Below, one piece after another: positions 14,787 through 39,997 of a DNA stretch of 64,000 bases (within the stretch, counting starts at the first letter, position 1; every line of letters starts with the position of its first letter). The notes beneath the pieces were generated by a model, which saw only the letters and a list, made by a program, of their open reading frames with translations, was not told the origin of the DNA and did no database searches. Made by a program: the position numbers and the translations under genes. The DNA lies in the NCBI RefSeq assembly GCF_058153355.1, contig NZ_CM177019.1. The stretch is one strand, 5' to 3'.

Positions 14787-14901
14787 TGAAGCGGCGCACG
14801 AAAAACGCGAAAGCGTTTCACGATAAATGCGAAAACTTTAGCTTTCGCGCTTCAAATGAAACAGCAGTATTAATTACTGCTTTTTATTCATTGCATGGGG
14901 A

Positions 14902-15627
14902 TCACTTAGGGTATGGCTGAACCCTGAATAGTTTGGTATTTAGCCGCTTCCTTGCTCGCTTGTTCAGGAATCTGATATAGCGATACTGATTAAATTTGTG
15001 CACTACGGCACGCTCTTTATTAGCCCGTAAATACACGCCTCGTTGTCCACCTCGCTTAATCGCGTTCATCGTTATCTCGTGATACCACTCACCATCCAGC
15101 TCGTAGAACGTACTTTCATGACTGCCAATAAAATCAAAATTCGACGCCTGATACACAACGCCTGCGCGTCCGCAGCGTTCGTCAGCAAAGGACTGAACCC
15201 ACTCCACTGACGGATACAGTAATCTGATAACTTTCAGCGCGTAGCTGATGGCCCGTGATTCAGAGTTGCGGGGCATGTCGTCGTGTAGCCACATGCGGTT
15301 CAACTCCATATAGCCCCGGTTATCCGTTTCAAGCACGACACGACGACCTGAGTTGGGGTTAAGGGCATATCCCCACTGGAGAACGCCAACCAGATCGCGC
15401 CCGCTGAATACTCCCAGGTGGAGGTAAGAGTTATTCACAAAACGGCGGGAATAGTGCTTTGTCTGAATAATTGTGCGGGCCAGCCAGCAGGATATGGTTT
15501 CAACGCGCAGCTCCTTTGAACCATAGCCAACAATCTGGCCTTCATACTCAATAACGCACGGTTTCGTCAGAATGCGTGATTTTTTCTCTTTTCCCACAAT
15601 GTTTCTCCGTGGGATGCTCGCAGGCAT
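14902..15627 (-). CDS. mom: Mu Mom DNA-modification protein (anti-restriction)
   Basis: Last gene before the Mu right end; 5' end overlaps com, the characteristic com-mom arrangement. True start may be internal to the 241-aa ORF. Confidence 0.8.
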
Positions 15628-15736
15628 TCAGCATTATGATGTGACGTTTGCAACGCGGACACCTGATTTCAATGTGATCAAAGGAATCCGCCTTAAATAA
15701 CAGTTTGTTGCAGTTTTTACAGCGAATTGATTTCAT
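15548..15736 (-). CDS. com: Mu Com zinc-finger translational activator of mom
   Basis: 62 aa with CxxC...CxxC zinc finger ([13 protein letters not shown]...CPRCK); overlaps the mom start. Confidence 0.85.
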
Positions 15737-15804
15737 CTCACCTCCTTTGCATCAATTCGCCACTATCTTAAAAAACATCATGGGTTGAGTGTGGTTATTG
15801 GGGC

Positions 15805-15850
15805 ATAATCGATCTGTATTACCGATCGATTTGATTGATTCGATCGTCGT
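15805..15850. promoter_or_regulatory. mom/com upstream regulatory region with three clustered GATC (Dam) sites
   Basis: GATC at 15811, 15824 and 15842 within 35 bp, just upstream of com; matches the known Dam/OxyR-controlled region of the Mu mom promoter. Confidence 0.6.
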
Positions 15851-16412
15851 TTTCTATATGCGTTCGTTTCGCGGGGTGTTTTTTATACAGAGTTGACAGG
15901 GCCACATCGTAGATCAATGCAACCTGCTTGCGGGGGATTCCTTGTGCTAATAAACGCCCGGCCTGCTCCCATTCCGCTTTGGTTAGTTTAGGTGGTCGCC
16001 CACCAATACGGCCTTTATTTCTGGCGGCAGCAAGTCCAGCCATCGTTCGCTCGATGATTAGTTCTCGTTCCATTTCAGCTAGGGCACCCATAACGTGGAA
16101 GAAAAAACGCCCCATTGGAGAAGATGTATCTATGCTGTCGGTCAGACTGCGAAAATTAATCCCTCGCTCCCGTAGTTCCCCGACGAGAGAAATCAGATGT
16201 TTCATGCTTCGCCCGAGACGATCCAGTTTCCAGACAACCAGCGTGTCACCTTTTTGAAGGCGCTTTAAAGCGCGTTTTAATCCCGGTCGGTCTGTCTTTG
16301 TCCCGCTTAATTTATCTTCAAATATTTGTTCACATCCTGCACAAACAAGAGCGTTTCGTTGCAGGTCTGTATTCTGGTCATTTGTTGATACCCTTACATA
16401 GCCAATCAGCAC
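15819..16412 (-). CDS. gin: Gin serine recombinase (DNA invertase of the G segment)
   Basis: Resolvase/invertase N-terminus (LIGYVRVSTNDQ, catalytic Ser) and C-terminal HTH; likely GTG start at 16412 preceded by GGGAGA (ORF track 15819..16430). Confidence 0.85.
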   Translation of the reverse strand: MLIGYVRVSTNDQNTDLQRNALVCAGCEQIFEDKLSGTKTDRPGLKRALKRLQKGDTLVVWKLDRLGRSMKHLISLVGELRERGINFRSLTDSIDTSSPMGRFFFHVMGALAEMERELIIERTMAGLAAARNKGRIGGRPPKLTKAEWEQAGRLLAQGIPRKQVALIYDVALSTLYKKHPAKRTHIENDDRINQIDR

Positions 16413-16466
16413 GCTGAATCTCCCGTCCAAAAGCGCAAATCATGCCATGCAGGCCGGAAACGGCCA

Positions 16467-16500
16467 TTATCTAAAACCTCGGTTTACAGGAAACGGTAAA
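16467..16500. repeat. gix recombination site, gin-proximal inverted repeat bounding the G segment
   Basis: ttatctaaaacctcggtttacaggaaacggtaaa is the near-perfect inverted copy (2 mismatches) of 19537..19570. Confidence 0.8.
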
Positions 16501-16537
16501 CAAGGCTGGTAACGCTGTTCAAAAGACAGGTGATACC

Positions 16538-17503
16538 TTGTCCGGTGGACTTACTTTTGAAAACGACTCAATCCTTGCCTGGATTCGAAATACTGACTGG
16601 GCAAAGATTGGGTTTAAAAATAATTCGGATGCAGACACCGATTCCTACATGTGGTTTGAAACAGGCGACAACGGCAATGAATATTTCAAATGGAGACACC
16701 ACCTCACTGGCGGCCGGGTTAAAGACCTGATGAATCTTAAATGGGATGCTCTGTATGTTCTTGTGAAAGCCCTTTTCAGCAGTGAAGTGAAAATATCGAC
16801 AGTCAATGCACTGAGGATATTTAATTCATCTTTTGGTGCCATTTTTCGTCGTTCTGAAGAATGCCTGCATATCATCCCTACACGAGAGAATGAGGGGGAA
16901 AATGGTGATATAGGGCCACTACGCCCCTTTACGCTTAATCTCAGAACTGGCCGGATAAGCATGGGGCATGGTCTTGATGTTACAGGGGATATATTTGCAA
17001 ACCGTTTTGCAATTAACAGTAGTACCGGCATGTGGATTCATATGCGTGACCAGAATGTTATTCTGGGCCGTAATGCGGTATCCAACGATGGTGCGCAGGC
17101 ATTGCTTCGCCAGGACCATACCGACCGTAAATTCGTAATTGGTGGGCTGGGGAATAAGCAATTTGGCATCTACATGATTAATAACTCAAGGACAGCCAAT
17201 GGCACCGATGGTCAGGCGTACATGGATAATAACGGTAACTGGCTTTGTGGTGCGCAAGTTATTCCCGGCAATTATGGCAATTTTGACTCCAGATATGTGA
17301 AAGATGTCCGGCTTGGCTCACAGCAATATTATGGTGTGAATAACTGGCAAACATGGAATTTCCAGTGCCCGTCAGGCTATGTACTGACGGGGATTAACGT
17401 ACAGGATACCGGAAAAAACTCTGCCGATAATATTGCAGGCGTTCATTACAGGCCAGTGCAAAAGTATATAAATGGCACCTGGTATAATGTGGCGAGTATT
17501 TAA
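16538..17503 (+). CDS. Alternative tail-fibre variable part S'v (silent in this orientation)
   Basis: Inside the G segment on the opposite strand to S; C-terminus ([10 protein letters not shown]) resembles the S C-terminus (NGTWYNAGSI). A complete gene would form only after inversion. Confidence 0.6.
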
Positions 17504-18032
17504 TATGATGCACTTAAAGAACATAAAAGCGGGTAATGCTAAAACACCAGAACAGTATGAGTTAACAAAGAAACACGGAGTTATCTGGCTTTACTCTGAG
17601 GACGGAAAAAACTGGTATGAGGAAGTGAAGAACTTTCAGCCGGATACAATAAAGATTGTTTACGACGAAAATAATATTATTGTCGCCGTCACTAAAGATG
17701 CCTCCACGCTTAATCCTGAAGGTTTTAGCGTCGTTGAAATCCCCGATATAACAGCTAACCGTCGTGCCGATGATTCAGGGAAGTGGATGTTTAAGGACGG
17801 AGCGGTGGTCAGGAGGACTTATACAGCAGACGAACAGCAGCAACAGGCCGAATCACAAAAGGCCGAGTTACTTTCCGAAGCTGAATCAGTCATCCAGCCG
17901 CTGGAACGCGCTGTCAGGCTGAATATGGCAACAGACGAGGAACGCACACGACTGGAAGCATGGGAACGCTACAGTGTTCTGATCAGCCGTGTGGATACGG
18001 CAAAGCCCGAATGGCCACAAAAACCTGAGTAA
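17472..18032 (+). CDS. Alternative tail-fibre assembly protein U' (silent in this orientation)
   Basis: 186 aa paralogue of U ([11 protein letters not shown]... versus MMHLKNISAGN...), inside the G segment. Confidence 0.7.
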
Positions 18033-18060
18033 AAATTAAGGCCCGATATCGGGCCTTCTC

Positions 18061-18594
18061 TCATTCTGGTTGTTCGGGAAACGTTACTGGCAGGCTGGAG
18101 GTGTCTGTGGATTCGACCTTCTGCGCATAGAGCATCCACTCGGTTAATTTTTGTTTATTCTCGTCGGAAATAATGCCCAGCCGTAGCTGTGAGTCCCACA
18201 GCTGGGTTTTATCCCTGACGAGCTGTAGCAGGCTTTGCTTTTCATTTTCCGCTTGTTGCCTCTGCTCTTCCCCGGTATAAGTTCGCTTTATCACTACGCC
18301 ATCTTTGAACATCCATTTACCTGAAATATCAGCCCGGCGATTTGCTGTAATATCAGGAACCTCAACGACGCTTGCGCCTTCCGGATTAATTGCTGAAACA
18401 TCCTTTTCAATACAAATAATAACGCCGTTGTGGTCATAGACCATTTTCAACGTATCAGGCTGAAAGTTCTTTTGTTCCTCATACCAGTTTTTCCCATCCT
18501 CTGTATAAAGCCATTTGATGTTAAATTGCTTTGTTAGCTGGTATTGCTCTTTTGTTTCAGGATTACCAGCAGAAATGTTTTTTAAGTGCATCAT
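18061..18594 (-). CDS. U: Tail-fibre assembly protein U
   Basis: 177 aa, directly downstream of S on the same strand. Confidence 0.8.
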   Translation of the reverse strand: MMHLKNISAGNPETKEQYQLTKQFNIKWLYTEDGKNWYEEQKNFQPDTLKMVYDHNGVIICIEKDVSAINPEGASVVEVPDITANRRADISGKWMFKDGVVIKRTYTGEEQRQQAENEKQSLLQLVRDKTQLWDSQLRLGIISDENKQKLTEWMLYAQKVESTDTSSLPVTFPEQPE

Positions 18595-18596
18595 CG

Positions 18597-20063
18597 TTAA
18601 ATACTCCCCGCGTTATACCACGTCCCATTAATGCAATACTGAACTGGCCTTGCCTGAGTTGTATCAATTAGTTCATCTCTGTTTGAGTTAACGGAACCGG
18701 TAACAACATAACCTGACCTGTCAGACCAGCCGGGACCATTCCATGTCTGAACAGATGACAGACCACCAAGGCGAATACCTGTAATAAACCTTGAGTTACA
18801 TTCTGCCTGCGTATATGCGCCAACATCTCTCGCTGATGGCTTGCGTGTTGTGGTGTAAAACTCTGACCAGCCAGCCTCAAATCCATAACCATCACGCGCT
18901 GAACGATAAAAAATACCGCCGTTCCTGTAATTCACACGGAACTGTACGGCAGGGCAACTCCCCGTATTCATATTGAAGTGGAGGATTAATGTTGTTGCGC
19001 CACCAATATTTGCGTTATAGACCCCGCTATTCCAGTTCCAGCCAACGGCTTTGTCGTTTCCGACGGTATTTCCTGTTTGCCCTAAAGCAAATGCAGGCTG
19101 CTGGTTTTTCGTGTTGTAGTCTCGTCGCCAGCCAGGAGCGTAAGCATCACCATGATTAATATAAGTGAATTGAGCGTTAGTGATTCCGCCGCCGCTGGAC
19201 GTGCCCGGCGTGGTAACGCGTATGGTCATTGCGCCGCGGGTGCCAATAACTTCCACCACAGCACCTGCAAGACAAATATTTCCGCAACCTGTATCTGTAA
19301 TGACCTTATTATTTGCATAAGCCCATGAGCCTTTGCACATCCAGTAAGGATGGTTAAATGCTCCCTGACTCTCCAGCCACGAAATAAATTGCGCAGTTGT
19401 CCAGACCTGACTATCGCCACCAATATCCACCCATGCGCTATATGCGCGACAGGCACCAATATTTTTGGTGAAGGTATCTTTTCCTGGAATATCTGCGCCG
19501 TTCTGGTTTTTCTGTAATGCGCCAGAAGCCTGATTTACCGTTTCCTGCAAACCGAGGTTTTGGATAAACAGCGGCTTATTGGGAATATCTGCTCCGTTCC
19601 GGTCTTTTGCCAGACGGGCATTGGCATTATCCATCGCAATTTTCACCGCTTTTGCGGTGGCTGCCAGCGTTTCACTGGGGCTGTCAGTGGCACTGGTTAG
19701 CTGAACGAGTCCTTTTTTGTTCAGGCTGGCATCATAGATATCCAGATTTTCACGTGCTGTACGCTGTGCTGATGCCCCGGCAGTTTTAATTTCGCTGAGG
19801 TTATTTTTTATCAGCAGCGCGTTCTTGTTCATGATGGCTTTAATGGACAGTGCAAGCTGGTTTAATTTTGTTTTATCCGGTTGAATACCGGCTTCTTCCA
19901 GCGTGTTTAATAACTCCGCCTGCACAATATTAAACCAGTCCATGCCGGGCCATGTGATAACATTATTCCCGTCACCTTCTGAAAACCAGCGAACGATAGC
20001 ACTACGCTTGGCGGATACGGGCGGCATGACGGTTACGCCGCTGTCGTTATCAATATAAAACAT
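18597..20063 (-). CDS. S: Tail fibre protein S (constant part outside G, variable part inside G)
   Basis: 488 aa; ORF crosses the gix boundary at about 19570. Confidence 0.8.
   Translation of the reverse strand: MFYIDNDSGVTVMPPVSAKRSAIVRWFSEGDGNNVITWPGMDWFNIVQAELLNTLEEAGIQPDKTKLNQLALSIKAIMNKNALLIKNNLSEIKTAGASAQRTARENLDIYDASLNKKGLVQLTSATDSPSETLAATAKAVKIAMDNANARLAKDRNGADIPNKPLFIQNLGLQETVNQASGALQKNQNGADIPGKDTFTKNIGACRAYSAWVDIGGDSQVWTTAQFISWLESQGAFNHPYWMCKGSWAYANNKVITDTGCGNICLAGAVVEVIGTRGAMTIRVTTPGTSSGGGITNAQFTYINHGDAYAPGWRRDYNTKNQQPAFALGQTGNTVGNDKAVGWNWNSGVYNANIGGATTLILHFNMNTGSCPAVQFRVNYRNGGIFYRSARDGYGFEAGWSEFYTTTRKPSARDVGAYTQAECNSRFITGIRLGGLSSVQTWNGPGWSDRSGYVVTGSVNSNRDELIDTTQARPVQYCINGTWYNAGSI
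19537..19570. repeat. gix recombination site, S-proximal inverted repeat
   Basis: tttaccgtttcctgcaaaccgaggttttggataaaca; inverted copy of 16467..16500. Confidence 0.8.
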
Positions 20064-20605
20064 TAGTTATCTCCGTCATGGTAAACAAATTTATAAATCT
20101 GATGTGCGGGTTTATATTTCTCCAGTAAACATTCCAGTGCACCCGATTCATAAACACGTAACGGCGTCAGAACATTATCCAGCACCGTTGCGTTGCGATA
20201 ATTTTTAATACCGTAAATATTGACCTGCGTAACCCACTGGCCTTCTGTGGAATCCGTCAGTCTGACGGTAAAACCGTACTGCGCAGCCAGCCATTCATAA
20301 AAGCGCCGACTCAGATTGCCGGTCATACGCATTTTATTTGCGGCAGCCCGCTGGCGTTCGGACAGGGTGCCGTTTTCGCTTGTACAGTCCGGCAACCCCA
20401 GAAATGATTCCCACTCCCTCAGATACCAGCGGGATGTGGACGGGAAACGCTCCCGCAGCATTTGCCGCGCATCATCCGCCGCAGTGGCAATCACATCGCT
20501 GATGGCCTGCGCCAGCGCAGATAATTTGCTGTCGGGGCTTTTATTCCAGGCAAGCCCTGACGGCAGTAATTGCAGAAAGGCAGCCTGATACGGTGTTACA
20601 GCCAT
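20063..20605 (-). CDS. Mu tail/baseplate protein (R position)
   Basis: 180 aa, between W and S in Mu gene order. Confidence 0.6.
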   Translation of the reverse strand: MAVTPYQAAFLQLLPSGLAWNKSPDSKLSALAQAISDVIATAADDARQMLRERFPSTSRWYLREWESFLGLPDCTSENGTLSERQRAAANKMRMTGNLSRRFYEWLAAQYGFTVRLTDSTEGQWVTQVNIYGIKNYRNATVLDNVLTPLRVYESGALECLLEKYKPAHQIYKFVYHDGDN

Positions 20606-21678
20606 TCAATTGTCCCCGGTGTTAACAGTTCCGTATTCTCCGAACGCCGGATCTCTGTCGGGAAACGCACTTCAAAATCATCCAGACCGGTAACACCTGC
20701 CACCGCACGGATAATACGGGAGGGGGCAAGTGTGCCGCCCGGCGTCACTTCATTAAAAAACATGGTATTAATGGCGTGGGTAATAGCCTGTTTCAGTTCG
20801 ACAGTCTTCGGTGATATATAAATCCGTGGATTTACCGGCTTTGCCTTTGGCGCAAATACCGTGACATTTACACCGTCAGGCTGTCCGACAATCAGGCCGG
20901 TTATCGGGTCAGTATGACCGGCGATATAATCCGCCACGCGTTCCACATCTGCCGGTTGTGGAAAAATATTGCTCCGGTTATCCATAACAAACGTCACCCC
21001 GACTGTGCCACCGCCTTTCCATGCCGGAAAACACCAGGCACGGGTAACGCCGCTGACTTCACGCGCCCAGCGAACATAATCAAACTGATTACCGCCGAAC
21101 GGAGGATACTGGACACGATATTCCAGCCGTGACAGCAGCTCCGCTGCACTCTCAATATCAGCCCCACCGGAAAACCCTTTTACAGTGATGGCATCGGAAA
21201 CAACACAGGCAACCGGGGTGATCAACGTTAAAAGGGTATTCTCACCGGTATTTCCTGCCTCACCGGCAGCCAGTGCGGTAACGGTAATTTCCGTCGTTCC
21301 TGCACGGCCAATCACAATGGCATCAGCCAGACTGTAAACCACACCATCAGCACGCTGCCAGCGTGTACCGGCAGGAATGGTGGTCGCTGCCGATGTGGTG
21401 ACAGTCAGCGGGCCGCTGGCGGCTGTCGCCTGTTTGCGGCGCACGCCCCAGAACCGGCAGTGCTCCAGCAACTCATCTTCATCTGCTGTCGACGGGATAA
21501 TCTGCCGTCCAACCCATGAAATATGCTCGTGACAACCGGCAGCAAGGCCCGCCTGAGCATAAGCAATGGCACTCAGCGTTTTTTCACGGGCCTGAGGCCA
21601 GCTACCCGGCAGGCGCTGTTCAATATTCTGTTCTGTACGGGCAATCAGCGATGATAATGTCGGTGGTGAATAAGCCAT
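20596..21678 (-). CDS. Baseplate wedge protein (gpJ-like), Mu W position
   Basis: 360 aa; order V-W-R-S. Confidence 0.65.
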   Translation of the reverse strand: MAYSPPTLSSLIARTEQNIEQRLPGSWPQAREKTLSAIAYAQAGLAAGCHEHISWVGRQIIPSTADEDELLEHCRFWGVRRKQATAASGPLTVTTSAATTIPAGTRWQRADGVVYSLADAIVIGRAGTTEITVTALAAGEAGNTGENTLLTLITPVACVVSDAITVKGFSGGADIESAAELLSRLEYRVQYPPFGGNQFDYVRWAREVSGVTRAWCFPAWKGGGTVGVTFVMDNRSNIFPQPADVERVADYIAGHTDPITGLIVGQPDGVNVTVFAPKAKPVNPRIYISPKTVELKQAITHAINTMFFNEVTPGGTLAPSRIIRAVAGVTGLDDFEVRFPTEIRRSENTELLTPGTIEWL

Positions 21679-22116
21679 TTAAACCCCGTTAAATACTGTT
21701 TTAAACTCATAAGGAATAACGGAACCATCCGGTAATGTCAGTGCAATGTAGAGGTATAACCAGCCCTGATGTAACTGTTCCGCTCTGACGTTAACCGCAC
21801 TTACCCGGCCCGCTGTTTTCAGCCATTCCAGCGCCTCTTCGGCATACTCTCTGGCACGTTCCGGCGTATCCTGTGTGGTTTTTTCACGTGATAACAGCCA
21901 CAACCGCGAACCGATGGGACGGTCGCGGTAACTGTCACCCCACCATCCACGGCGATCATCTGAACCATCCGGCAGCGTGTCAGAATCCAGCGTGCGCCGG
22001 TCGGTAAACAGGGAGATTGTCACATCGGTTGTCAGGCTGTCGTCGGTCAGCATATCAATGCCATCCTGTGCAATATCGCCGCGTCCGTTCGTCCAGATAA
22101 TGGCTAAATCGGTCAT
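21679..22116 (-). CDS. Baseplate protein (gp25/lysozyme-like fold), Mu V position
   Basis: 145 aa; order. Confidence 0.6.
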   Translation of the reverse strand: MTDLAIIWTNGRGDIAQDGIDMLTDDSLTTDVTISLFTDRRTLDSDTLPDGSDDRRGWWGDSYRDRPIGSRLWLLSREKTTQDTPERAREYAEEALEWLKTAGRVSAVNVRAEQLHQGWLYLYIALTLPDGSVIPYEFKTVFNGV

Positions 22117-22706
22117 TGCATCGGCCCTGTGGTTCCGCCGCTGTCGCCACGGTGGATATGCTTATCCGTCGATTTGCCATTGATGATGGCATCCGGGGCA
22201 GTAATATTGCTGTCGAACTGGCTTTTACCTTTAACGCCCAGACCTTTCTGGATCTCAACGTCGCCGGTAAACGTGGTTCTGGGTGTATCAACGGTCATAC
22301 TTTCATCAGCGTAAATCTCAACCGTTTTACAGGTAATGACGCAGCGCCCGTCCTTTGTCAGCCTGATACGATGCCCCTCGTGGTGGTAAATGCCTGCATC
22401 ACCCGGTTCAAGATTTGTCGGGCGGTAGCGGCGATCTTCCACCACAACGGCAATCCCCTGATCACGTTGTGCACCCACACAGGCAATCAGCGCCTCTGCG
22501 CCCGGCAGGGGAACGCTGAAATGCCCGTAATTTTGCAGGCGCTCCACTTCATCAGATTCCTCATCATCCAGCAGACCGACCTGCAGGTTCTGAACCTTTC
22601 GCCCGTCGTGAATCACGTTAACAACGGCACGCGCAAGCATCAGACGCACACGACGCATCAGCGGTGTCAGCAGGCGGTTCATGGCGGAATCATTTACTCT
22701 TTCCAC
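22113..22706 (-). CDS. Baseplate spike/assembly protein, Mu Q position
   Basis: 197 aa; order. Confidence 0.6.
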   Translation of the reverse strand: MERVNDSAMNRLLTPLMRRVRLMLARAVVNVIHDGRKVQNLQVGLLDDEESDEVERLQNYGHFSVPLPGAEALIACVGAQRDQGIAVVVEDRRYRPTNLEPGDAGIYHHEGHRIRLTKDGRCVITCKTVEIYADESMTVDTPRTTFTGDVEIQKGLGVKGKSQFDSNITAPDAIINGKSTDKHIHRGDSGGTTGPMQ

Positions 22707-23833
22707 GGCGGCGTTTTCTCCGGGTGTCTGCGATAATAATCTTCAACCAGCGCATCAATACCGCCGTTACTGTCGCCGCCTTTCCTGTTTTTACGGTCGC
22801 TTTCAACCGGCACCAGAAAGCCTTCGCGTGGTGCAAGGCTGACGCGGGTTTTCAGCCCGTCCTGGTCATTCAGTATCAGGGTGACTTTGCTGACCAGTAA
22901 TTCCGTGGTTTTGATGGCATATTTCGAGGCATCAATAGTGACCAGCAGGTTCGGCATCCAGAGTTGCCCGTCCCTGCGTTTCCATCCGTCAATTTCTGCC
23001 TCAAAAGTGATGGATTTTGCCAGTCTGCGGCGTTGCTCACGCAGGGCGCGGGCCTGTGCATCCTTCGCCGTAATTTTGCTGTCAGCAATGATGATCATCG
23101 GTCTGTAACGGGTCACATCACTGTCAGTGGCGGTCCCTTTCCGGGAAACGATACTTTTCGCATCAATATCATCACCCTCAGCACCGTTCGCGCGGGCATA
23201 CCCCTTGACGATGTATTCGCTGAACCGGTCGCGGAAGTTTTCCTCAAAATCCAGTGTCAGCAGATTTTCTCCGAGAACCAGCTCATCAGTGGCTGTGCTG
23301 GCAGCCCGGCTGAATACCAGCTCTCCGGCGGCATTGCTGGTCATCAGTACACCGCGTGCGCGGGAGGCGCGCACCAGCGCCTCATAAACGGTTTCTGAAT
23401 GGTCCAGCGTGAAGCCGGGAAAAGCTGCCGAACTTTCCTTATCGGAAAGCTCCCAGCGAACGGTAACGCCATAAGGGGCGCACAGGTCACGCGCGATCTG
23501 CTCCAGTGTGCGGTTTTTCCACTGTCCACCACTGTAAACGGCAGCACAGTCAATCAGGTCAGCCGTTTTGTCACGTCCGGCGACAGTGATTTTCATACTG
23601 TCAGCGGTCATCTGGCGTCGCCGTGAATCGATATAACCGGTGCAGACAATCTGCCCCCCGATTTCCAGCGTGAACGCCTTCCCCGGTGCCAGCCCGGATA
23701 AATCCGTACCCGGTGGCACGTTCACCCCCAGCTCAAAATATCCGGCTACGGATTCAATCGAGCGGGTGACAGAGACTGACGTCCAGCCGGTAAAAAGCCT
23801 GCCATCCGTTCGCAGTGTGACGGTATTACTCAT
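22694..23833 (-). CDS. Baseplate hub protein, Mu P position
   Basis: 379 aa; order. Confidence 0.65.
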
Positions 23834-25313
23834 TAATCACCTCAATACTGACGCCACCGGGAACAAACAACGGGTTGCTGATACCATTCCTGCGGGCCAG
23901 CCGTTGCCAGTTCCGGCTGTTTCCTGTGTAACGGTACAGGGCCACCATTGCAGGCATCGTCTCCGGCAGGCGGTGCGTTTCACTTCCCGCCAGTTGCAGC
24001 CCACGTTTTTCCAGGTCGGCAACAACCAGCAGACGCAGTTGCGTAAGCTGAACGCTGTCTGTCGAAAAGCCCTGCTCAGATGCCGTCAGAATGACGGTAT
24101 CCAGTGCAGCCCCCAGCATGGCGGCTGTTTTTCCGATATCGGACACACTTTCAAATACCGGGGGCGTGGCTGTACCACTGTCTGAAAAGGATACCTGTGA
24201 AAAGCCGCCGTCCGGGGTTATGGTAGTTAACTGTAACTGTCCCTGTGTGACGGTAGCAGATGTGCTGCTGGCCCCGCTGGCTGTGCCGGTTGTGGTGGAC
24301 GGGGCATCCAGTACAGGTGTACGGGCGGCATTATCCATCCGGCGACTGAAATCCAGTGCCGCAGTCAGTGCCTGGCTGGCAGCTTCTGCCCGGTATGTCT
24401 GCGCCGCTGCCAGCATGACGTAGTTCAGTGTGGCAATATTTTTTTCTGCAACCGGACTGTTGTACGAGGTTGTGATTGCCCCCTGTCTGCCTGCGGTGGC
24501 GGCATGGCGACGTTCGAATCGCTGCGCCAGACGGTTCCATGTGGAAAATGCTGTCCGGGTATCGCATAACGATGAAACGCCGGACAGCGCCCCCATCAGC
24601 GAGGAGGCCAGCATGGCAGGCTGGTTAATCAGGCTGGTCACAGAGCCTTTCATCGCAGAAAGCGATCCCATCAGACCGCTGACAGTCTGCGTAACCCCCA
24701 GATTGTCCACCGCATCACTGATATCATCGATGACACCGGTTACAGCTTCCATCACGGCGGTTGCCGCCGCAGTGCCATCTTTTACGGTCTGCCAGACAGA
24801 GGACAGCGTATCCCCCAGAGAACCGGTTACAGCAACAGCCTGTGCCGGTACGGCTGCACTGGTGTCTGTTTCTGCGTCCGGGGCAGTATCCTGCAACGAC
24901 GGATAAACGGTAACGGTGAACGCGTAATAATTCAGTTCATCCGCTTTAGTGCGGCATTCCCATGAATCCACCATGACGTCCACAGTGCCGAAATCAGGAT
25001 GTACCAGCTCACCGCTGCCCGGAGCATCAAGAGCATCCATCAGCGCATCCGCTTCATCTCTGGCTGTTTCTGCGTTACTGTTCAGAATGCAGGCGCTGAA
25101 TGTACGGGAGCGAAGCTTTTTCCCCAGGTCATTGACGCCGCCGGTATCACGTAACGGGTACTCGCGTTTAACCAAGCGACGTCCGCCAGCCTGTTTTTGC
25201 TCCTCGATGACGAGAAACGGCACGTTACGGAACGTGCCTTTGCCGGTTGTTTTCCTGCCTCCACCGGTTTTATCCCGGACAGCATTAACGGCATTTAAAG
25301 CATCTTCAAACAT
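23826..25313 (-). CDS. Mu N-position protein (DNA circularisation / tail protein)
   Basis: 495 aa; immediately downstream of the tape measure gene. Confidence 0.65.
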
Positions 25314-25317
25314 GGTT

Positions 25318-27483
25318 TTACCAGCCCGTAATGTAGTTATCGCCCGCGTAAATATTCAGCCCCATACCATCCCCGGTGACGCGGGAACTGGTCAGACGTA
25401 ACCCCTCGCCAAGTTCGACGCGCAGCGAGGCTTCCGCATTGACTTTTTGTTCCTGCGGTTCCTTATCCGTGGCCGTCCATTTCTGATACAGGTCGGTTAC
25501 AAAACCGCCCAGATACTCCCCGGCGACACTGCCCAGCGTGGCACCGGCAACCGTACCCAGCGGTCCGGCAAGGCTGCCAACGGCACCGCCGAGCCATGCA
25601 CCGGCTGTACTGCCAATTGCTCCTGCTTTTTCATGGGCTGACGCCTGCTCATCCATCAGGACGGGGGCAAGCTGGAGTGCCCCCATTACCGGGCCACCCA
25701 GACGTGACAACGCACGACAGGCACCTTTGCCCATCCAGCCCAGCGCCCCGGCACCTTTTGCCACAACCCGACCGATCGCACTGCCTGCAAGTTTGTTTCC
25801 GATACCGGAAAACCACCCGCCAGCGGCACGCCCGGCATCAGCCAGCTTTCCGACCGTTCCCGTAACCAGTTGCCCGGCAGCACTGCCTGCAAGTCTGCTC
25901 AGAAGACCGGATTTACCGGGTAAAGGTAATGGTGCAGGCCGTGCTGTTACCGGTACGCCGGGTGGGGGTAATGCCAGTACAGGGCGTGGTGCAGGTAATG
26001 CCAGCGGCTGTGGCCCGGACAGCAATAACGGCTGGCGGGGTAACAGCGGGGCCATTCTTCCGCCGCTCCGTCCGCGACGACCGCCGCCACTCCCGTAGCC
26101 ACCAAATCCACGGGGCCAGTTGATGACAAACACACGCTGAATGCCGGTGCCCTGCAACAGCGTCTCAGACGTCATGGCATCCGGCACCGGCAGACCTGCC
26201 CGCCCACGTTTGCGGTTCCGCATCCAGCGCCACATACGACGCCCGGTTTTAAACGGATAACTGGCAACCTGCCATGAGGGTTTTGCCACGGCCCAGCCTG
26301 CTCTCAGGGCTTTATTGGCAAGCCAGACAGACACCAGAACAGCAGCCAGTTTTTTCAGGCTGACAATATTCTGGTCAACCCATGCCAGCGCATCTTTACC
26401 CGGTTTCAGCCAGCGCCATAATTCCTGCGCCGCGATTTTCACCGTTCTGAATGTGGTCAGAAACTTCTGACCAATGTTTTGCGCCAGTGCGTCAAGTTCC
26501 CCGGATTTATCCGCCATGTCGTGCCAGTCAAGCACCCGGCGCATCTCGTTCTTGATTTCTTCAAAGGGGCCGCTGTTGGCCACCTTTGTGCGAAACTCAA
26601 GCAGGTTGCCCTCCATCTGGGCCATCATCCCGTCCCAGGAGTTCATGGCAGCCGCCTGTGCGCCTTTTGACTGTTCCAGTAAGATTCTGAACACCGTCAG
26701 GATGGATTTCAGGCCCAGCTTGCCCTTTGTACCCAGATCACGGATTTTTTTCTCATCCTCACCCGTTGCATCTGCCAGCACCTTGTAGACGTTGATACCG
26801 TAGCCGGTCAGCAGGTTGGCGTCCGCCGCTGTGATTTGCTGACGGGCAAACATCTGTTTGAACTGTAACGAAGCCCCCTGTGCAGTGGGTAAATCCCAGC
26901 CGTGCATCGCCCCCTGGTTCTGTAGCATGGTGATGAACTGTTTTACCTGGGCATCAGTCATGCCAAACGCAGTTGATGTGCGGATCTCCTGCAGAACACC
27001 ACCCAGCCCCCAGGTGGTTTCTTTTGCGTTCTGCTTCGCCCACGCCATCATGGCCTGTGCTCTGGCCTTATCGCCGTGATAGAGCGAGTTCATGGCGATA
27101 ATCTGCTGCTCACGCTGGGCGGCTGCACCAATAAACAGTTTATTGGCGGTGTAACCCACGCCAGCGATACCCAGCGCCCCGGCTGACAGCATTCGGAATG
27201 TACGGGTTGACAGAGAACCCATTCTGTCAATGGCACCAGAAACGCGCACAACCTCCATACGCAGGGCACGCAGGGAACTTTGTCCGCTACGGGACAGGGC
27301 GTTTATCTGGTTCGAATACTGGCGGGAACGCCGGGAAAGATTGCCATTAAGATCAATAATGACAGACGCTTTTAAGCGTTTCCCGGTCACAGAAATCTCC
27401 TGATTTAACGGTGATATTGAGAGAGGGTTTTCGCCTGCTGGCAGTGCCGGAAAAAGCGGGACAGCGGGAGGGACAAGGCCCAT
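25318..27483 (-). CDS. Tail tape-measure protein
   Basis: 721 aa; coiled-coil N-terminal half, Gly/Pro/Ala-rich low-complexity C-terminal part; downstream of sheath, tube and chaperone genes. Confidence 0.7.
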
Positions 27484-27534
27484 TCCGGGCCACTTTTCAG
27501 AATAACGCCAATCGCTGTCGCCGCTTTCTCAATA

Positions 27535-27969
27535 TCATTCCGGCACCGCAGCCACTCGCCCCCGTTCTTGCGTCAGCGATGCTGCCACGGCCATGTCGTA
27601 CATTTCTGTGGCCAGCGACAGACGCTGGAAGTCATCGACGGACAGTTTACGCATCAGCGCCATCGACAACGGGCCTTTGATGCAGCCCACGCTGGCAATC
27701 TGTCGGCGCAGCATTTCCAGCCCCATCAGGGACGGGGAACTGACCAGCACCGGACCTTCCTTGCTCATTACCAGCTTTTCAGCAGCCACCTGGGCATCAA
27801 TCAGATCGCCTGCGGTCAGTTCACGCAGCGTCACGTCATACTGCATTTCAGTCTCGTCGCCGGTGCCGAACGGCAGGCCGTCTTTCAGTTTCAGCACGCC
27901 GGACTGAAGCTCTGCCACAATGCTGTCATGCAGTTCCTGTGCTTCCTCACTTAAATTCATTTCGTCCAT
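27535..27969 (-). CDS. Tail assembly chaperone-like protein
   Basis: 144 aa acidic protein between the tube and tape-measure genes. Confidence 0.5.
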   Translation of the reverse strand: MDEMNLSEEAQELHDSIVAELQSGVLKLKDGLPFGTGDETEMQYDVTLRELTAGDLIDAQVAAEKLVMSKEGPVLVSSPSLMGLEMLRRQIASVGCIKGPLSMALMRKLSVDDFQRLSLATEMYDMAVAASLTQERGRVAAVPE

Positions 27970-27978
27970 TGGTTCCCC

Positions 27979-28335
27979 TTATGCAATGCGTTTGCTTTGT
28001 TTTGCCATCAGTACCAGCGAAATTTCGCCGCCGTCGTTTTTCGGTTCATCTGCCTGCCAGGCATTCGCCATCATCCAGGTTTCACCGGTGTCTGCCTGAA
28101 ACTCTGCCGTGATGTTTTCCCAGCCGATGATTTCATCCAGACCGATATCACCACCGCCCGGAATTTTGCATTCCAGCTTTGCGGCACGTGGTTTACCTTT
28201 CCAGCCATAAACCCGCGAGCCGGTCACTTCTTCACGGGTGATGCCGGAAGGTGTGAAGGAGGCACCTTCCATCGTTTCAAGCTCCATGCCATTGACACGG
28301 ATGAACGCCACCCCCTGACGCTGATTTCCAGCCAT
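27979..28335 (-). CDS. M: Tail tube protein
   Basis: 118 aa directly downstream of the sheath gene. Confidence 0.75.
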   Translation of the reverse strand: MAGNQRQGVAFIRVNGMELETMEGASFTPSGITREEVTGSRVYGWKGKPRAAKLECKIPGGGDIGLDEIIGWENITAEFQADTGETWMMANAWQADEPKNDGGEISLVLMAKQSKRIA

Positions 28336-28344
28336 AAATGCTCC

Positions 28345-29832
28345 TTACAGAATGAACTGAACTTGTGCCGCGAAAATGCGGAACTGGTTAATCAGATTCG
28401 GGCCGCACAGCACATCAAGACGGTCTTTGTCGTCCTTGTTACGTGCCACATACAGCTCCTCTTTGAACGTGTCGAAATCCTCGACCAGTCCGGCGTTTTC
28501 CCATTCTTCAAACAGTGCCAGCAGCTCCGTTTTGATCACGGATGGCGTCACCACGGCCTGACCGGTGGCAAAGCGGGTGCCATCACTTGCCAGCTTGTAG
28601 TTCGGGAATTTCTGCGTGATGCGGGTTCGCAGCGAATAACGCAGATAACTCAGCGTGGCGATGGTATTCACGTTCAGATAAGACGGATCACTGTCACCGT
28701 ACTTGTTTGTGCGGTACATCGTGATCATGCGTTCAATCTGCATTTCACCACCATCATTCACGTTAAACGTGGAGATGCCGTCAAACAGCAGCGCATTACG
28801 TTCTGACCAGGTGAAACGATCCCCCACCGCAGGCGGCATTCTTCCGGGCAACGTCAGCGTCTGGAGTGGACGCGCCGGGTCGATGGAAAGCGCCTGGCTG
28901 GCAACGGCACACAGTGTGGCGGCGTACAGATATGACGGTTCCGGTGCACCGGCAATCCCCATACAGGAAATCAGATGGTCATTACGGCTGACACCAAACG
29001 TGGAAATATCCCCATACGTGCCGGACAGCACTGTCACGGCAAAGCCATCAGCCTGATTGACTGGTCCCCAGCGTTCCTGCAATTCAGTGCGTAACAGATT
29101 CAGGTTCGGTTCATCGGTATAGGGCATCACAATATATTTGTATTGCAGATCGCCCATTCCCGCGATACCTGCGCTGATATCCGGGTTGCCATTTTTCCCG
29201 GAGGCGGCTTTGAATGCCGTGATAATCCCGTAAGGGGTGGTTTCACCCGCGTAATAGTTCCAGCGCACGTCCACGGCAGATAATGCACCCGTAAATTTTG
29301 CACTCAGAACCACATCTGCATGGGTGTCATCATCTCCGCTGTCTGCGCGAACTTCTGCCGTCACCGGTAAATCCGGCTGGCCTTTGATTCGGGCAACCAG
29401 CAGGTCAGCCAGCGCCGCTCCCGTTGCACCTGCTGCGACAGATACCGCCAGTCGCTGACCGGCAATGTAAGTCACAAGCGAGCCGTTTTCGCCTGCCGTT
29501 CCGGACAGTGAGATTTCACCGACAGCAGCATTACCGGTGCCGTTCCCCTGCGGGATACACCACAGCTCCGCCACGCGGTTAGCGTTCAGGAATGCATCTG
29601 CCATCAGTGCCAGCATGGAACCCTGACCAAACGCCGCACTGGCCTGTGAGCCGGAACGGATACGGACAGGCACGTCTGGTGCCGCACTGGCTTTACTTCC
29701 GCTTTGCCCGAACATCAGCACGCGCTGACGGGGTGCCGGTGTTCCGCTGACGGCATTACTGTTATCAAATTCGATATACGTCAGAGGAACGCGAACATCT
29801 GACGGGATCGCGTTAAATGAAATATCGCTCAT
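28345..29832 (-). CDS. L: Contractile tail sheath protein
   Basis: 495 aa; position and size as Mu L. Confidence 0.8.
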
Positions 29833-30035
29833 TTCGATTTACTCCGTTTTTTCGGCGCAGTGTCGGTATCATCCGCCGTGTTTTCGGTGCTCCCGACTTC
29901 AACCACATCACCGGCTGCAAGGCGACGTATCCAGAAACTGTTACGGGGCTTTTCTTCTCCCTCAGACGCCAGTAATTTCATCGTGAGCGGGTCACGGATG
30001 GCTTTTCCCGCTGCGGGTTTAATTTTCAGCATCAT
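29829..30035 (-). CDS. Small Mu late protein (unknown function)
   Basis: 68 aa ORF overlapping its neighbours by a few bases; phage-operon packing. Confidence 0.4.
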
Positions 30036-30567
30036 GATCCTTTTCCTGATTCACATTGATATGTGCGGCAAATTCCGGGGTTTCGTCCGGGAATTTCCAG
30101 GTCTGCCAGTGGCGCTCGTAATCATCCAGCGAATCCATGTCCACCACGGACGGCAGCGGGGTAGTGCCACTGAACAGAACACCGTAAAGCACCACACCGG
30201 CATTGATACGGTTGTCGTCACAAAGATTTCTGACCTGCGTCAGTCTCATCCCGGTGGTCGGGCCAAACGTCTGACCGTTAACACCGGCAATCAGTCGCTC
30301 CACAATCTGATAAATACCGGGCCGGTTTACCTGTTCCCCGTTCAGCAACTCCGCCACGACAAAAAATGCCCAGCGACTTTCAACTTCCCGACGCGTACGC
30401 CCCTCACCACAGCCCATCCATGCCAGAAATACCGATGGCGGGGCCAGAAAGAGACGGTGCACATCCTCGTTAGTCCATGTGCCGGTAAGGGGTTCCACCT
30501 GCCGCAGGGTTGCCCCAAACAACTCACGAACGCGCGCCAGCAGTGCGGCTTCGGTTTCTTCCAGCAT
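30019..30567 (-). CDS. Head-tail joining/completion protein (Mu K position)
   Basis: 182 aa; order. Confidence 0.55.
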   Translation of the reverse strand: MLEETEAALLARVRELFGATLRQVEPLTGTWTNEDVHRLFLAPPSVFLAWMGCGEGRTRREVESRWAFFVVAELLNGEQVNRPGIYQIVERLIAGVNGQTFGPTTGMRLTQVRNLCDDNRINAGVVLYGVLFSGTTPLPSVVDMDSLDDYERHWQTWKFPDETPEFAAHINVNQEKDHDAEN

Positions 30568-30992
30568 CAGATAAACCCCTTCTGTTTTCGTGAGAAGACC
30601 GGCGCGTCAGACTGCACCTGCACAAGGTTTTCACCATCCGGCGAGGCTGCCGTCCTGCTTTCCACGCCGGGATCTGTTTTGCCATCGCGCACCTGTTCCA
30701 GCCAGCGCACTGTGTCCCTGTAGGCAGCGGTGATCTGCTCGGTGGGTTGTGATTCATTCAGATAAAACCAGGCCACCACGCAACACTGCCGTTTCAGCAG
30801 TGAGGGGACGACGGTAAGCGGCAGAACAAAGCGCGCGGCGAGATAGCCATCAATAAAGGCCGAAGCATCTGCCAGTGCCTGTTCTGCCACGGCATCATCC
30901 GGCTGCCCGTCCGCTGTTTTAGGGCGGGTGAGAATATCCAGCCGCGTACGTGTATAGCGGGCGCACAGGTCATTTACCGTCGCGTAATTCAT
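30567..30992 (-). CDS. Head-tail connector/completion protein (Mu J position)
   Basis: 141 aa; order. Confidence 0.55.
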   Translation of the reverse strand: MNYATVNDLCARYTRTRLDILTRPKTADGQPDDAVAEQALADASAFIDGYLAARFVLPLTVVPSLLKRQCCVVAWFYLNESQPTEQITAAYRDTVRWLEQVRDGKTDPGVESRTAASPDGENLVQVQSDAPVFSRKQKGFI

Positions 30993-31399
30993 GCATCCGC
31001 CTCAGCCTGCGCCGCTTTGATTTGCGCGCTGCTTACCGGTTCCCCCAGCGCCGCACTGACGGCTTTCACTTTGGGTTCCCCCCCTGCGGTAAAGTGTTCC
31101 GGGTTTGCCTTATCCAGACCGGCAACGGTCGCACGGATACGGGCGTTCAGATCGCCCACACCCAGAACGTCCAGCCCCCCAGCCTCAGCGAGCGTTTCTG
31201 CTGACGATGCAGATACCACAGACAGCACGCTGTCGGCACGAATGATCGCCAGTTGTTCTTCGGTGACTTCCACGGTGTTTTCGCCACGTGTAAAGGCGAT
31301 TCCGGCGCGGCGGTAGACCGGACGAAGGCATTTAATAATCGCCGTGCAAGTGATGCGAGAAGTGCCCAGCCGTTGTGAATTAAGCGAAGTGCCTGACAT
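30989..31399 (-). CDS. Head-associated protein downstream of the major capsid gene
   Basis: 136 aa; order. Confidence 0.5.
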   Translation of the reverse strand: MSGTSLNSQRLGTSRITCTAIIKCLRPVYRRAGIAFTRGENTVEVTEEQLAIIRADSVLSVVSASSAETLAEAGGLDVLGVGDLNARIRATVAGLDKANPEHFTAGGEPKVKAVSAALGEPVSSAQIKAAQAEADA

Positions 31400-31465
31400 A
31401 ACACATGCTCCTCCTTTTCCTTTAAATCAGGTTAAAAGGCGGTCTGAACCGCCTTTTAATGACGG

Positions 31466-32383
31466 TTACAGGTAGTCAGCGACAACCAGTTGCAGCTTGC
31501 CCTTCATCTCGTTGGAGACGGTGGTATTGCCATCCGCGAACAGTTCACGGTTAAGCAGTTGCTCTGCGGCTTTTTCCAGCCCGACCGGTACAACGATATG
31601 CGTCGGCTTCAGGCCCAGCTTCTTACCGCCATCACCTTCAAAAGATCGCATCAGTTGCCAGCCCTTCCAGAGGTTATCCAGCGTCAGATCGCCTTTTACC
31701 GCGACAGCCATCTGCCAGAAGCCGTAACCGGCAGCACGGCGGGCGCTGGCACCAAACAGGAACTCGTTATCCATAAAAACGTGGTCGTCATCGATACGGG
31801 TACGTGCGACCAGTTCCGGTTTGCGGCGCTCCTGGAAAATCAGCGGTTTGACTGCGCGGGAGCAGTCCAGCAGATAGAATGGCAGACCGCTGAAGCTGTC
31901 CTGCTCAACGATGTTGGAGGTATTAACCGCGCTGCCCGTGCCGTCCACATTCGGATATACCGGATGCTCCTTGTCGAAGAAGTTCTGACCGTCATAGCAG
32001 GGCTGGGTAAAGCCATCTTTCAGAAGTTTAAAAATCAGCTCATCCGGCTGAACTGCCGCAGAACGGCCCATCTCCTGAAAAATCGGCGCATAAATACCCA
32101 GATTGTCATCCTCGAAGTCATCACGGGAAATACCCACGGTGCCTTCAAACGTTTTATTGGCGATAGAGTAGCCATGCGCTTCCATTTGCTGAATGGTTCG
32201 CTTACCCACCCATTCTTTCAGGGTCGGGAATTTACCCAGCCAGCCATAGGTATTACTGCGGGTGGAAGAGTTCACCACCATTGCAATTTTGCTGTACTGC
32301 GACGGGGCGTCTTCAAGACCGCCCTGAAAATCCTTACGCCAGGAGGTCATCAGGGCTTTAATGGATGCCGGGGTGACAATCAT
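31466..32383 (-). CDS. T: Major capsid protein
   Basis: 305 aa; follows the protease/scaffold gene. Confidence 0.8.
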   Translation of the reverse strand: MIVTPASIKALMTSWRKDFQGGLEDAPSQYSKIAMVVNSSTRSNTYGWLGKFPTLKEWVGKRTIQQMEAHGYSIANKTFEGTVGISRDDFEDDNLGIYAPIFQEMGRSAAVQPDELIFKLLKDGFTQPCYDGQNFFDKEHPVYPNVDGTGSAVNTSNIVEQDSFSGLPFYLLDCSRAVKPLIFQERRKPELVARTRIDDDHVFMDNEFLFGASARRAAGYGFWQMAVAVKGDLTLDNLWKGWQLMRSFEGDGGKKLGLKPTHIVVPVGLEKAAEQLLNRELFADGNTTVSNEMKGKLQLVVADYL

Positions 32384-33465
32384 TTTTCTTGTTCCTGTTT
32401 CATTTTCAGATACTCAGCCTCAGTAATGCCGAGCGCCTTCACTGCTGCCTGTTCATCAGCAGACAGCACCGCCACTGCCGGTTTTTCCTGTGACAGGTTT
32501 TGTACCGTTGTGGTCTGCATGGCAGATAACGCAGCGATGGGCTGTTTTTTCTCAAGCTGTGCCGACAGTGCCGCCACGCCAATCTGACCGCCAAGCTGTT
32601 CCAGATAGGTACGTTCGCTTTTGAAAATGCGGCCTTCCTGTTCCGCCTTGTCCAGAACGGCGCTCAGGCTGGCTGTGGCGCTTTGTGCAGTCGCCTGTGC
32701 CAGTTCATCACGCAGGGCGTTGTAGCTTTCCACCGGGACGTATTTCGTCAGGTCAACGGCGGCGTTCTGTGCCTTTTCCAGTTCGGCGGATAACGACGCC
32801 ACTTTCCCGGCATTACTTTCCAGCGTGTCCAGTGCGGTCAGTGCCGCTGTTGCCTGTTCATCGGTGATGTCTGCATTTTCGGGGACAGTCACCCCAAGAC
32901 GCGCAAGCAGCTTGCGCAGCGTTTCATTCATGGGTTTGTTCTCCTGTTGAAGGATGTCGGGAAGGTCTGCCGCCAGTGCGGTCAGCTTTTTCATGCCGGT
33001 GGCACCGGGGTCATTGGTCAGCGCAGCAAGGCGGATTTGCAGCACCGCACCGGTGGCGGTGTCATACGGAAAAACCGCAGAGAGATAACCAAATTCGCCG
33101 TCATCGATGCGCTGCTGGGCCGCCGCCGTCCAGCGTGGGTGGATAAATAACCCTTCACCTTCACGCCACTGCATTTCATCGGCGTTAAACCAGCCAGCCG
33201 CGACGAGTTGTTCCGGGGGTAATCCTTTGTCCTTACGTAGCTGGTTATGCTCGTAATCAATCAGCACGTCCTGGTTGAGCGCGCGAACGCCTTCAACCAG
33301 ACGCCCGGCAATCTCACCGTCGATGAACCACCCCTGACCGTCTGTCACATCAAACGGACGACCATCACGGGCACTGAAATGACCGGCAGGCAATAGCTGG
33401 CACCAGCCGTCATCGTCAATGGACAGCGCACTCAGTGCGGCAATGCCAATCGCGTGTTTTTTCAT
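32380..33465 (-). CDS. I: Head maturation protease / scaffold protein
   Basis: 361 aa; Ala/Gln-rich coiled-coil C-terminal half (scaffold-like); immediately upstream of the capsid gene. Confidence 0.75.
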   Translation of the reverse strand: MKKHAIGIAALSALSIDDDGWCQLLPAGHFSARDGRPFDVTDGQGWFIDGEIAGRLVEGVRALNQDVLIDYEHNQLRKDKGLPPEQLVAAGWFNADEMQWREGEGLFIHPRWTAAAQQRIDDGEFGYLSAVFPYDTATGAVLQIRLAALTNDPGATGMKKLTALAADLPDILQQENKPMNETLRKLLARLGVTVPENADITDEQATAALTALDTLESNAGKVASLSAELEKAQNAAVDLTKYVPVESYNALRDELAQATAQSATASLSAVLDKAEQEGRIFKSERTYLEQLGGQIGVAALSAQLEKKQPIAALSAMQTTTVQNLSQEKPAVAVLSADEQAAVKALGITEAEYLKMKQEQEK

Positions 33466-33661
33466 GTCCTGCTGCTCATCATGGTTTGTGAGCAGTCAGT
33501 TTGCGGGTGGTGCGGGAAAATCTGGGGTTATGCTATTTGAGTAATGGAGAAAGAAAGTGGAAGGAAGATAAAACGGGATTCATACACCGTTAAATACCGG
33601 TTTAAAAATCCCCTGGCGCGTTTTAAAAAATCTGTGCGGCTGATTTCATGTCTGATTCAGT
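33466..33661. other. G-I intergenic region, expected site of the Mu strong gyrase site (SGS)
   Basis: 196-bp non-coding gap near the centre of the prophage (about 18 kb from the left end), where the SGS lies in Mu; exact site not verifiable by eye. Confidence 0.45.
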
Positions 33662-34132
33662 TTATTGCCTCAGAGCGGCGCTGACGCGTTTTCTGATGGC
33701 ATCAAAAATTTCCTGTTCCCCGGTCTTATCCAGCCCCATATAAGGACGCGCAGGAACGCCTGCCGGGCGGGGTGCCATATCGGGTGTACCTCCCCACTGA
33801 TGAATGGCAGCATAAATTTTTGGCGAACCAATCAGGGCATAATCCTGTCCATAATCGGTGGTAATGCTGCGTGCCAGATCGCCATGCAGGGTAAGGATAC
33901 TGCCCGGAACAAAACCATGATCCTGACGCCATGCCTGCCACGAATCGCTCCACGCTTCCCAGCCTTTCCCTGTATCCGGGTCTGCCTGCCGTTCAAATGC
34001 CTGTTCCGTGGATGACAGCAGCGCCGCAGCCATCACACGGGGAATGGCGCGGTCACGTGTAACGGTTCCCAGTTCATCCAGTGCAAGCTGAATACGTCGC
34101 ACATCCACGGCAACGTTCATATCAAGACTCAC
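33662..34132 (-). CDS. G: Virion morphogenesis protein G
   Basis: 156 aa; order F-G-I. Confidence 0.65.
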   Translation of the reverse strand: MSLDMNVAVDVRRIQLALDELGTVTRDRAIPRVMAAALLSSTEQAFERQADPDTGKGWEAWSDSWQAWRQDHGFVPGSILTLHGDLARSITTDYGQDYALIGSPKIYAAIHQWGGTPDMAPRPAGVPARPYMGLDKTGEQEIFDAIRKRVSAALRQ

Positions 34133-38622: not shown

Positions 38623-38629
38623 AACCCTC

Positions 38630-39821: not shown

Positions 39822-39997
39822 CAGTGGCAGTAGTTCGCCATCGGCTGCTGTCTCAGCACATCAGGCCGCAGCTCACGACCGCAACCGGCACACAATACAG
39901 GCGGGTCATACGCCGCCGGGCGGGGAATATCACGGGTATCCCCCTGCCAGAGTTCAGCGAGCAGCAGCGCCACCGCCCGGTTCTGGTCTTCGTTCAT
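39803..39997 (-). CDS. Small Cys-containing protein
   Basis: 64 aa with CAGCGREL...CHWC pattern. Confidence 0.35.
   Translation of the reverse strand: MNEDQNRAVALLLAELWQGDTRDIPRPAAYDPPVLCAGCGRELRPDVLRQQPMANYCHWCRGAE

Follow-up and report, generated by a model that had tools for sequence, protein, structure and literature searches.

Three clustered GATC sites upstream of com-mom as the probable Dam-methylation sensor of the mom promoter in a Mu-type prophage

The three GATC sites found upstream of the com-mom operon of a Mu-type prophage most probably form the Dam-methylation sensor of the mom promoter, Pmom, a reading to which we give a probability of about 93% on the basis of sequence comparisons. 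In phage Mu, OxyR represses mom in dam- cells by binding the unmethylated GATC region, and this binding does not take place when the three GATCs are fully methylated by Dam. The prophage was identified in a stretch of 64,000 nucleotides of contig NZ_CM177019.1, which was analysed as a whole and is referred to here as the window. The Dam/OxyR control region of Pmom is already-known biology, encountered here in a natural Mu-type prophage: Dam and OxyR have been described as controlling mom (PMC2909390) and as governing Pmom together (PMC3378877).

Results

The original prediction, made from the sequence alone, had placed GATC sites at 15811, 15824 and 15842 within 35 bp, and a sequence scan confirmed all three (starts on the plus strand), the cluster extending from 15811 to 15845. 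When read on the minus strand, the start-to-start spacing is 18 and then 13 nt, and the sites are located 75 to 109 nt upstream of the com start codon (ATG at 15736). The description of the cluster as lying at the 3' end of gin and upstream of com was also accurate, given that two of the sites fall within the last codons of gin and the third begins 5 nt after its stop. The coordinates of all features are given in Table 1.

It had further been claimed that the cluster matches the known methylation-sensitive control region of the mom operon, and this is supported by the alignment of the segment 15700-15920 (minus strand) with the Mu genome (AF083977), which is free of gaps and shows only 2 differences in 221 nt. 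The cluster is found at the same place in the Pmom control region of Mu (35640-35770) and not at a different location, and the three GATCs coincide with the Mu sites, which are directly upstream of the late promoter annotated in Mu (35693-35759). In the gap-free alignment of the same segment with both Mu and D108 (GQ357916), all three GATCs are invariant. One of the two differences from Mu is at -105, where G is replaced by A and an Ala of Gin by Thr. The other is at -75 (window 15833), where T is replaced by C and the stop codon of Mu gin, TAA, becomes CAA. Gin is 4 amino acids longer here (QIDR), making the middle GATC coding, and two of the three sites are thus in the gin frame versus one in Mu. 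Both differences are outside the putative OxyR half-sites (see below) and the GATCs; the one at -75 is inside the OxyR footprint, in the spacer between the half-sites, and D108 has the same base.

Table 1. Features of the prophage and of its com-mom control region (coordinates in the window; promoter positions relative to the Pmom start, +1)
Feature	Window coordinates	Strand	Position relative to Pmom start	Description
Mu-type prophage, complete	14787..51506	minus		right end at 14787, left (c) end at 51506
mom	14902..15597	minus		enzyme of DNA adenine modification; 231 aa when counted from the GUG that is the annotated start in Mu; 230/231 identical to Mu Mom
com	15548..15736	minus		zinc-ribbon protein of 62 aa that activates the translation of mom; same as Mu Com at 62/62 positions
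RNA hairpin (predicted)	15592..15614	minus		GGAG, the Shine-Dalgarno sequence of mom, is paired with the GUG start (15597); sequence identical to Mu
Pmom core promoter	15758..15795	minus		-35 ACCACA, 15795..15790; -10 TAAGAT, 15770..15765
C-binding dyad TTAT-N6-ATAA (presumed)	15795..15808	minus	-50..-37	overlaps the -35 hexamer; identical to Mu
GATC site 3 (promoter-proximal)	15811..15814		-56..-53	Mu 35690; in the right arm of putative half-site B, abuts the C-binding dyad; intergenic
Putative OxyR half-site B	15812..15826	minus	-68..-54	ATCGGTAATACAGAT; 7/10 against ATAGnTnnnAnCTAT
gin	15819..16412	minus		G-segment invertase, 197 aa; TAA stop at 15821..15819; last codons overlap GATC sites 1 and 2
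GATC site 2 (middle)	15824..15827		-69..-66	Mu 35677; inside CGATCG, in the left arm of putative half-site B; in the gin frame here, not in Mu
GATC site 1 (promoter-distal)	15842..15845		-87..-84	Mu 35659; inside CGATCG, in the right arm of putative half-site A; within the gin coding sequence
Putative OxyR half-site A	15843..15857	minus	-99..-85	ATAGAAAACGACGAT; 7/10 against ATAGnTnnnAnCTAT
Gene C	41136..41558	minus		Mor-family late activator; 138/140 aa identical to Mu C (tblastn 98.6%)

The -35 and -10 hexamers, the T6 run, the 19-nt spacer, the C dyad, the leader, com and the translation-inhibition hairpin are all identical to those of Mu. With D108, the window shares the bases at -105 and -75, the 197-aa Gin and the three GATCs. 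It differs from D108 in the centre of the C dyad, which is GTCTC in D108 versus GCCCC in the window, as in Mu, and in the extra gene that D108 has after mom. The control region is, in this respect, a mosaic that is D108-like at -105 and -75 and Mu-like at the dyad centre.

The numbering of the promoter was established by aligning, in register from window position 15816, a 78-bp Pmom fragment that was published with the limits -58 and +20 (PMC3378877) and is available as an oligonucleotide (PMC4461284). This puts the Pmom start, +1, at window position 15758, a G on the minus strand. The restriction sites that had been used to delete the Fis sites at -123 and -98, BstUI and PvuI (PMC3378877), agree with this numbering, as they are found at -115..-112 (CGCG) and at -88..-83 (CGATCG), respectively. 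The two hexamers are separated by a spacer of 19 nt that includes a run of six T (TTTTTT). Pmom has been described as having weak -35 and -10 elements and a suboptimal spacing (PMC3378877), and the features of a promoter that is weak and activator-dependent (a poor -35, an over-long spacer with a T run, and TAAGAT) are present here, identical to Mu. A scan of 15400-16600 with the sigma-70 consensus found no promoter. This is uninformative, since Pmom is a deliberately poor promoter that depends on an activator. As for the activator itself, the dyad TTAT-N6-ATAA is, following the Mu literature, what we take to be the exact C site. Binding of the late activator C to a site overlapping Pmom has been reported (PMC4461284).

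The mom regulatory module is complete, as the original prediction had it, and its promoter, C dyad, Com, Mom, C and hairpin are all intact. Pfam models matched the three proteins, namely Com (Zn_ribbon_Com, E = 2.7e-9), Mom (Mom family, E = 2.5e-75) and C (Mor, E = 9e-34), and NCBIfam yielded no model matching Com, Mom or C. The com and mom reading frames overlap, and an in-frame ATG is also present upstream of the mom start, at 15627. The current description of Mom is that of an enzyme that modifies adenine in a tRNA(Gly)-dependent manner (PMC13219725, and also the RefSeq names), and the binding of Com is known to relieve a translation-inhibition structure of mom (PMC6483171). The global RNA fold of 15570-15650 was no more stable than that of shuffled sequences (z = -0.7), and only the local hairpin was used.

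On unmethylated mom DNA, the stretch protected by reduced OxyR extends from about -104 to -46. For the identification of the OxyR contacts within this region, we relied on the OxyR dimer half-site consensus, printed as ATAGxTxxxAxCATAT (PMC2909390), and half-sites were scored against its palindromic form, ATAGnTnnnAnCTAT, with 10 specified positions. Two putative half-sites, A (ATAGAAAACGACGAT) and B (ATCGGTAATACAGAT), were obtained; the matches are moderate, with a score of 7/10 or better being reached by only 0.23% of the 15-mers of the window. Their offset is exactly 31 bp, one helical turn beyond the contiguous 22-bp form, and this is the spacing expected for reduced OxyR. The half-site spacing at the Salmonella/P22 gtr operon is likewise consistent with the binding of reduced OxyR (PMC2909390). 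The three GATCs fill three of the four arms of the two putative half-sites, and the spacing of 13 nt arises because sites 2 and 3 occupy the left and the right arm of half-site B.

The contiguous 37-nt OxyR consensus of the oxidised form was tried as well and was replaced by the two-half-site analysis, as it matched at only 13/20 (-90..-54), which is weak in absolute terms. This is the top 37-nt score in the 64-kb window and is centred on the cluster, with 16 of approximately 128,000 positions reaching 13/20.

The control region is present at 98% identity or more in 46 of 5,426 complete E. coli genomes. The prophage of APEC E19057 has a control region 100% identical to that in the window and is inserted elsewhere. 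More diverged relatives were collected by two IMG/VR scans with Mom, which gave over 100 loci with Mom identities of 69-100%, and the GATC arrangement was examined in the 160 nt upstream of com (loci L006-L123). Spacings of 13 and/or 18-19 nt between the GATCs upstream of com are found in 11 of the 13 diverged Com sequence types, while flanks, promoter, com and the upstream gene vary. The spacing is 18 + 13 in the Mu type and in L044, L045 and L115, and 19 + 13 in L084. Only the 18-nt spacing is present in L026-L042, where site 3 is changed to GCATCG, and only the 13-nt spacing in L086-L114. In L043, L091 and L116, the spacing is 31 + 13, with a GATC occupying the arm that is ATAG in Mu. A single four-arm grid, at -31, -18, 0 and +13 relative to the middle site, accommodates all of these positions, and the ATAG arm of half-site A is conserved in the relatives. 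L116 has one more GATC, at -63, a hint that it may have a third half-site, as gtr does.

In many cases, the gene upstream of com is a different one from gin. The Mu-type prophage of E. coli S6 (NZ_CP107134; L004, 2375-2640) has lost gin, with no more than a tail-fibre-assembly remnant left upstream, while the homology of the com-mom control region is kept from about -108, just outside the OxyR site. The most distant lineages, with Mom identities of approximately 69-72%, are without the GATC grid. The Aeromonas phage pAEv1818, which was found separately, has a Mom identity of 69%, and this suggests, through that phage rather than by a direct linkage, an Aeromonas-like origin for these lineages.

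The arrangement at mom resembles that of two proven Dam/OxyR switches outside the com-mom family. At agn43 (flu) of E. coli K-12, three GATCs are spaced 19/13, versus 18/13 at mom, and the half-sites score 8/10 and 8/10 with an offset of 32 bp, versus 7/10, 7/10 and 31 bp. Both regions have an ATAG left arm followed by arms bearing GATC. Comparison of the agn43 segment (L124, NC_000913, 2071300-2071360) with window 15803-15862 gave 42 identical nucleotides of 63 (67%) and an alignment score of 54, versus 14 ± 5.6 for shuffled sequences. Methylation abrogates the binding of OxyR at agn43 (PMC2909390). The two systems differ in the position of the OxyR site: at agn43, it is at the annotated transcript start (IsrC begins at the first GATC) and OxyR alone decides between ON and OFF, whereas at mom it is upstream (-99..-54) of a promoter that depends on the activator C. 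The agn43 gene lies in the cryptic prophage CP4-44.

The gtr operon of P22 has pairs of GATCs at -110/-97 and -46/-33, each with a spacing of 13 nt and each lying inside a single OxyR half-site, and OxyR does not bind there once the DNA is methylated (PMC2909390). These pairs have the same arrangement as sites 2 and 3 at mom. The number of elements differs, with three half-sites and four GATCs at Salmonella/P22 gtr versus two half-sites and three GATCs at mom; at gtr, OxyR has alternative positions, some activating and some repressing.

The count of GATC sites was also considered. The 64-kb window contains 169 GATCs, fewer than the 226 ± 12 expected from dinucleotide-preserving shuffles. Four triplets within 31 nt or less are found in it, the other three being in host genes, at 10651-10677 and 12374-12416. 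Under random placement of the GATCs, a mean of 0.52 triplets per window was obtained and the probability of at least one was 0.39, and thus the count alone is not significant. For the prophage taken alone (71 GATCs, 1.9 per kb), in which the cluster is the only triplet, the probability is approximately 0.11. Given the four triplets in the window and the occurrence of at least one in 39% of random trials (11% for the prophage alone), count-based significance was rejected as evidence in either direction. The GATC density of the prophage, 1.9 per kb, is about half of that in the host flanks (3.6 per kb). Among the clusters in the flanks, one has three GATCs in 27 bp (10651-10677) at the 3' end of a yihV-like kinase gene and another has four GATCs in 43 bp (12374-12416) in the 3' part of yihU; these show that tight GATC clusters arise without known regulatory meaning.

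For most of its length, the prophage shares approximately 97% identity with Mu AF083977, and it lies in reverse orientation in the window. Its exact Mu ends are flanked by a 5-bp target duplication, CCGGG (14782-14786 and 51507-51511). The invertible G segment (16480-19553) is inverted, that is, G(-) relative to AF083977. Identity to Mu S/U is only 82-87% in the homologous part (16467-17290), pointing to a variant specificity of the tail fibre. In the early region (43494-46703), the Mu segments 4803-5047, 6406-6412, 6921-7455, the 7664-7655 junction and 9462-9832 are missing or replaced. The replaced segments are the typical mosaicism of the semi-essential early region.

The insertion is between yihS and yihR, in an Escherichia-type sulfoquinovose catabolism cluster, with yihW, yihV, yihU, yihT and yihS on one side of the prophage and yihR and yihQ on the other. 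Neither dam nor oxyR is inside the 64-kb window; from the Escherichia-type flanks, we infer that both Dam and OxyR are present in the host. Compared with complete E. coli genomes, the flanks (14400-14786 and 51507-54500) show 90-95% identity to most and no more than 98.7% to a subset, and the host-prophage junction was found in no complete E. coli genome of the collection searched. Thus, either the yih allele of this host is one of the less common ones, or the host belongs to a divergent Escherichia lineage.

Discussion

Based on the identity with Mu, the control of mom in this prophage would be layered. OxyR bound to the unmethylated GATCs would repress mom, and full Dam methylation would prevent OxyR from binding. 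Transcription would in addition need the phage late activator C, acting at its dyad (-50..-37) next to site 3 and over a poor promoter, and translation would need Com, which would open the hairpin that hides the ribosome-binding site and the GUG start of mom. Such layers would confine Mom, a toxic DNA-modifying enzyme, to the late lytic phase. As the methyl groups presumably occupy the major-groove contacts of the OxyR arms, it would be the 18/13-nt spacing, and not the surrounding sequence, that the relatives keep. The comparison of com-mom modules supports the geometry of the OxyR arm contacts, rather than the sequence around them, as the feature that may have been selected.

Several other explanations could account for the cluster. 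It could be a by-product of coding constraints on the C-terminus of Gin, or a product of chance, with no regulatory role here. Two of the three sites are indeed in the gin frame (codons GAC GAT CGA ATC AAT ...), three more triplets of this kind occur in ordinary host genes, and at least one is found in 39% of random trials. However, only one site is coding in Mu, where gin stops earlier, and the same spacing is common to agn43 and gtr, both of which are without gin. The grid is also kept where another gene is upstream or gin is deleted (L016, L018, L019, L026-L042 and E. coli S6). Because it persists without gin upstream, a gin-coding by-product is largely excluded, and because the control region is identical to that of Mu and the spacing grid is kept in diverged relatives, the cluster is not a chance one. 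Taken together, coding constraint or chance has next to no probability as an explanation. It is also possible to envisage that the main reader of the sites is SeqA, or the hemimethylated state, and not OxyR alone. Mu replication leaves hemimethylated sites and closely spaced hemimethylated GATCs recruit SeqA, so that the expression of mom would be timed to coincide with the end of replication. The distance between sites 1 and 3, 31 bp, is approximately three helical turns, which puts them on the same face of the DNA. By its title, the study of Correnti et al. (2002) has SeqA altering the related agn43 switch, and binding of OxyR to hemimethylated Pmom DNA is stated in the title of Hattman and Sun (1997), so that hemimethylation matters. 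On the other hand, a site used by SeqA only would have no need of the OxyR half-site consensus that the arms around the GATCs match, one conserved arm is ATAG and has no GATC, and the literature searched gave no evidence on a role of SeqA at mom. As the main reader, SeqA or hemimethylation is therefore quite unlikely; as an added layer on the cluster, it is possible.

The likeness to agn43 raises the question of whether the lysogen has a heritable ON/OFF switch, in which OxyR-bound, unmethylated lineages would alternate with methylated ones and only a fraction of the induced cells would yield Mom-modified phage. The GATC geometry and the half-site layout are nearly those of agn43, with 67% identity over 63 nt. 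Yet the OxyR site of mom is upstream of the promoter (-99..-54), while the flu transcript IsrC begins at the first GATC. Moreover, expression needs C, which is absent in the lysogen, and there would be no phenotype until induction; nor are the GATCs at mom known to stay unmethylated in dam+ cells. We consider such a switch unlikely. A broader proposal joins a portable four-arm Dam/OxyR cassette with a heritable state in lysogens, methylated or OxyR-protected, that would decide whether induced cells yield Mom-modified phage, and this joint reading is tentative and rather doubtful. The cassette may consist of two OxyR half-sites 31-32 bp apart, of which com-mom modules fill two to three arms with GATC in various ways. 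The 67% identity between the agn43 and mom control regions could reflect common descent rather than convergence. Our preferred reading is still that the three GATCs act as the Dam-methylation sensor of Pmom, read by OxyR.

Descriptions of the control of mom by Dam and OxyR date back to the 1980s, and the present case brings nothing new for the mechanism. A modest addition comes from the diverged com-mom modules, which retain both the 18/13 GATC grid and the ATAG arm, the grid also coinciding with the architectures of agn43 and gtr. The result is, in the first place, one of annotation, in that the system controlling Mom, a toxic anti-restriction enzyme, is complete in this prophage and identical to that of Mu. 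The phage induced from a dam+ host should therefore be Mom-modified, and such phage should resist many restriction enzymes.
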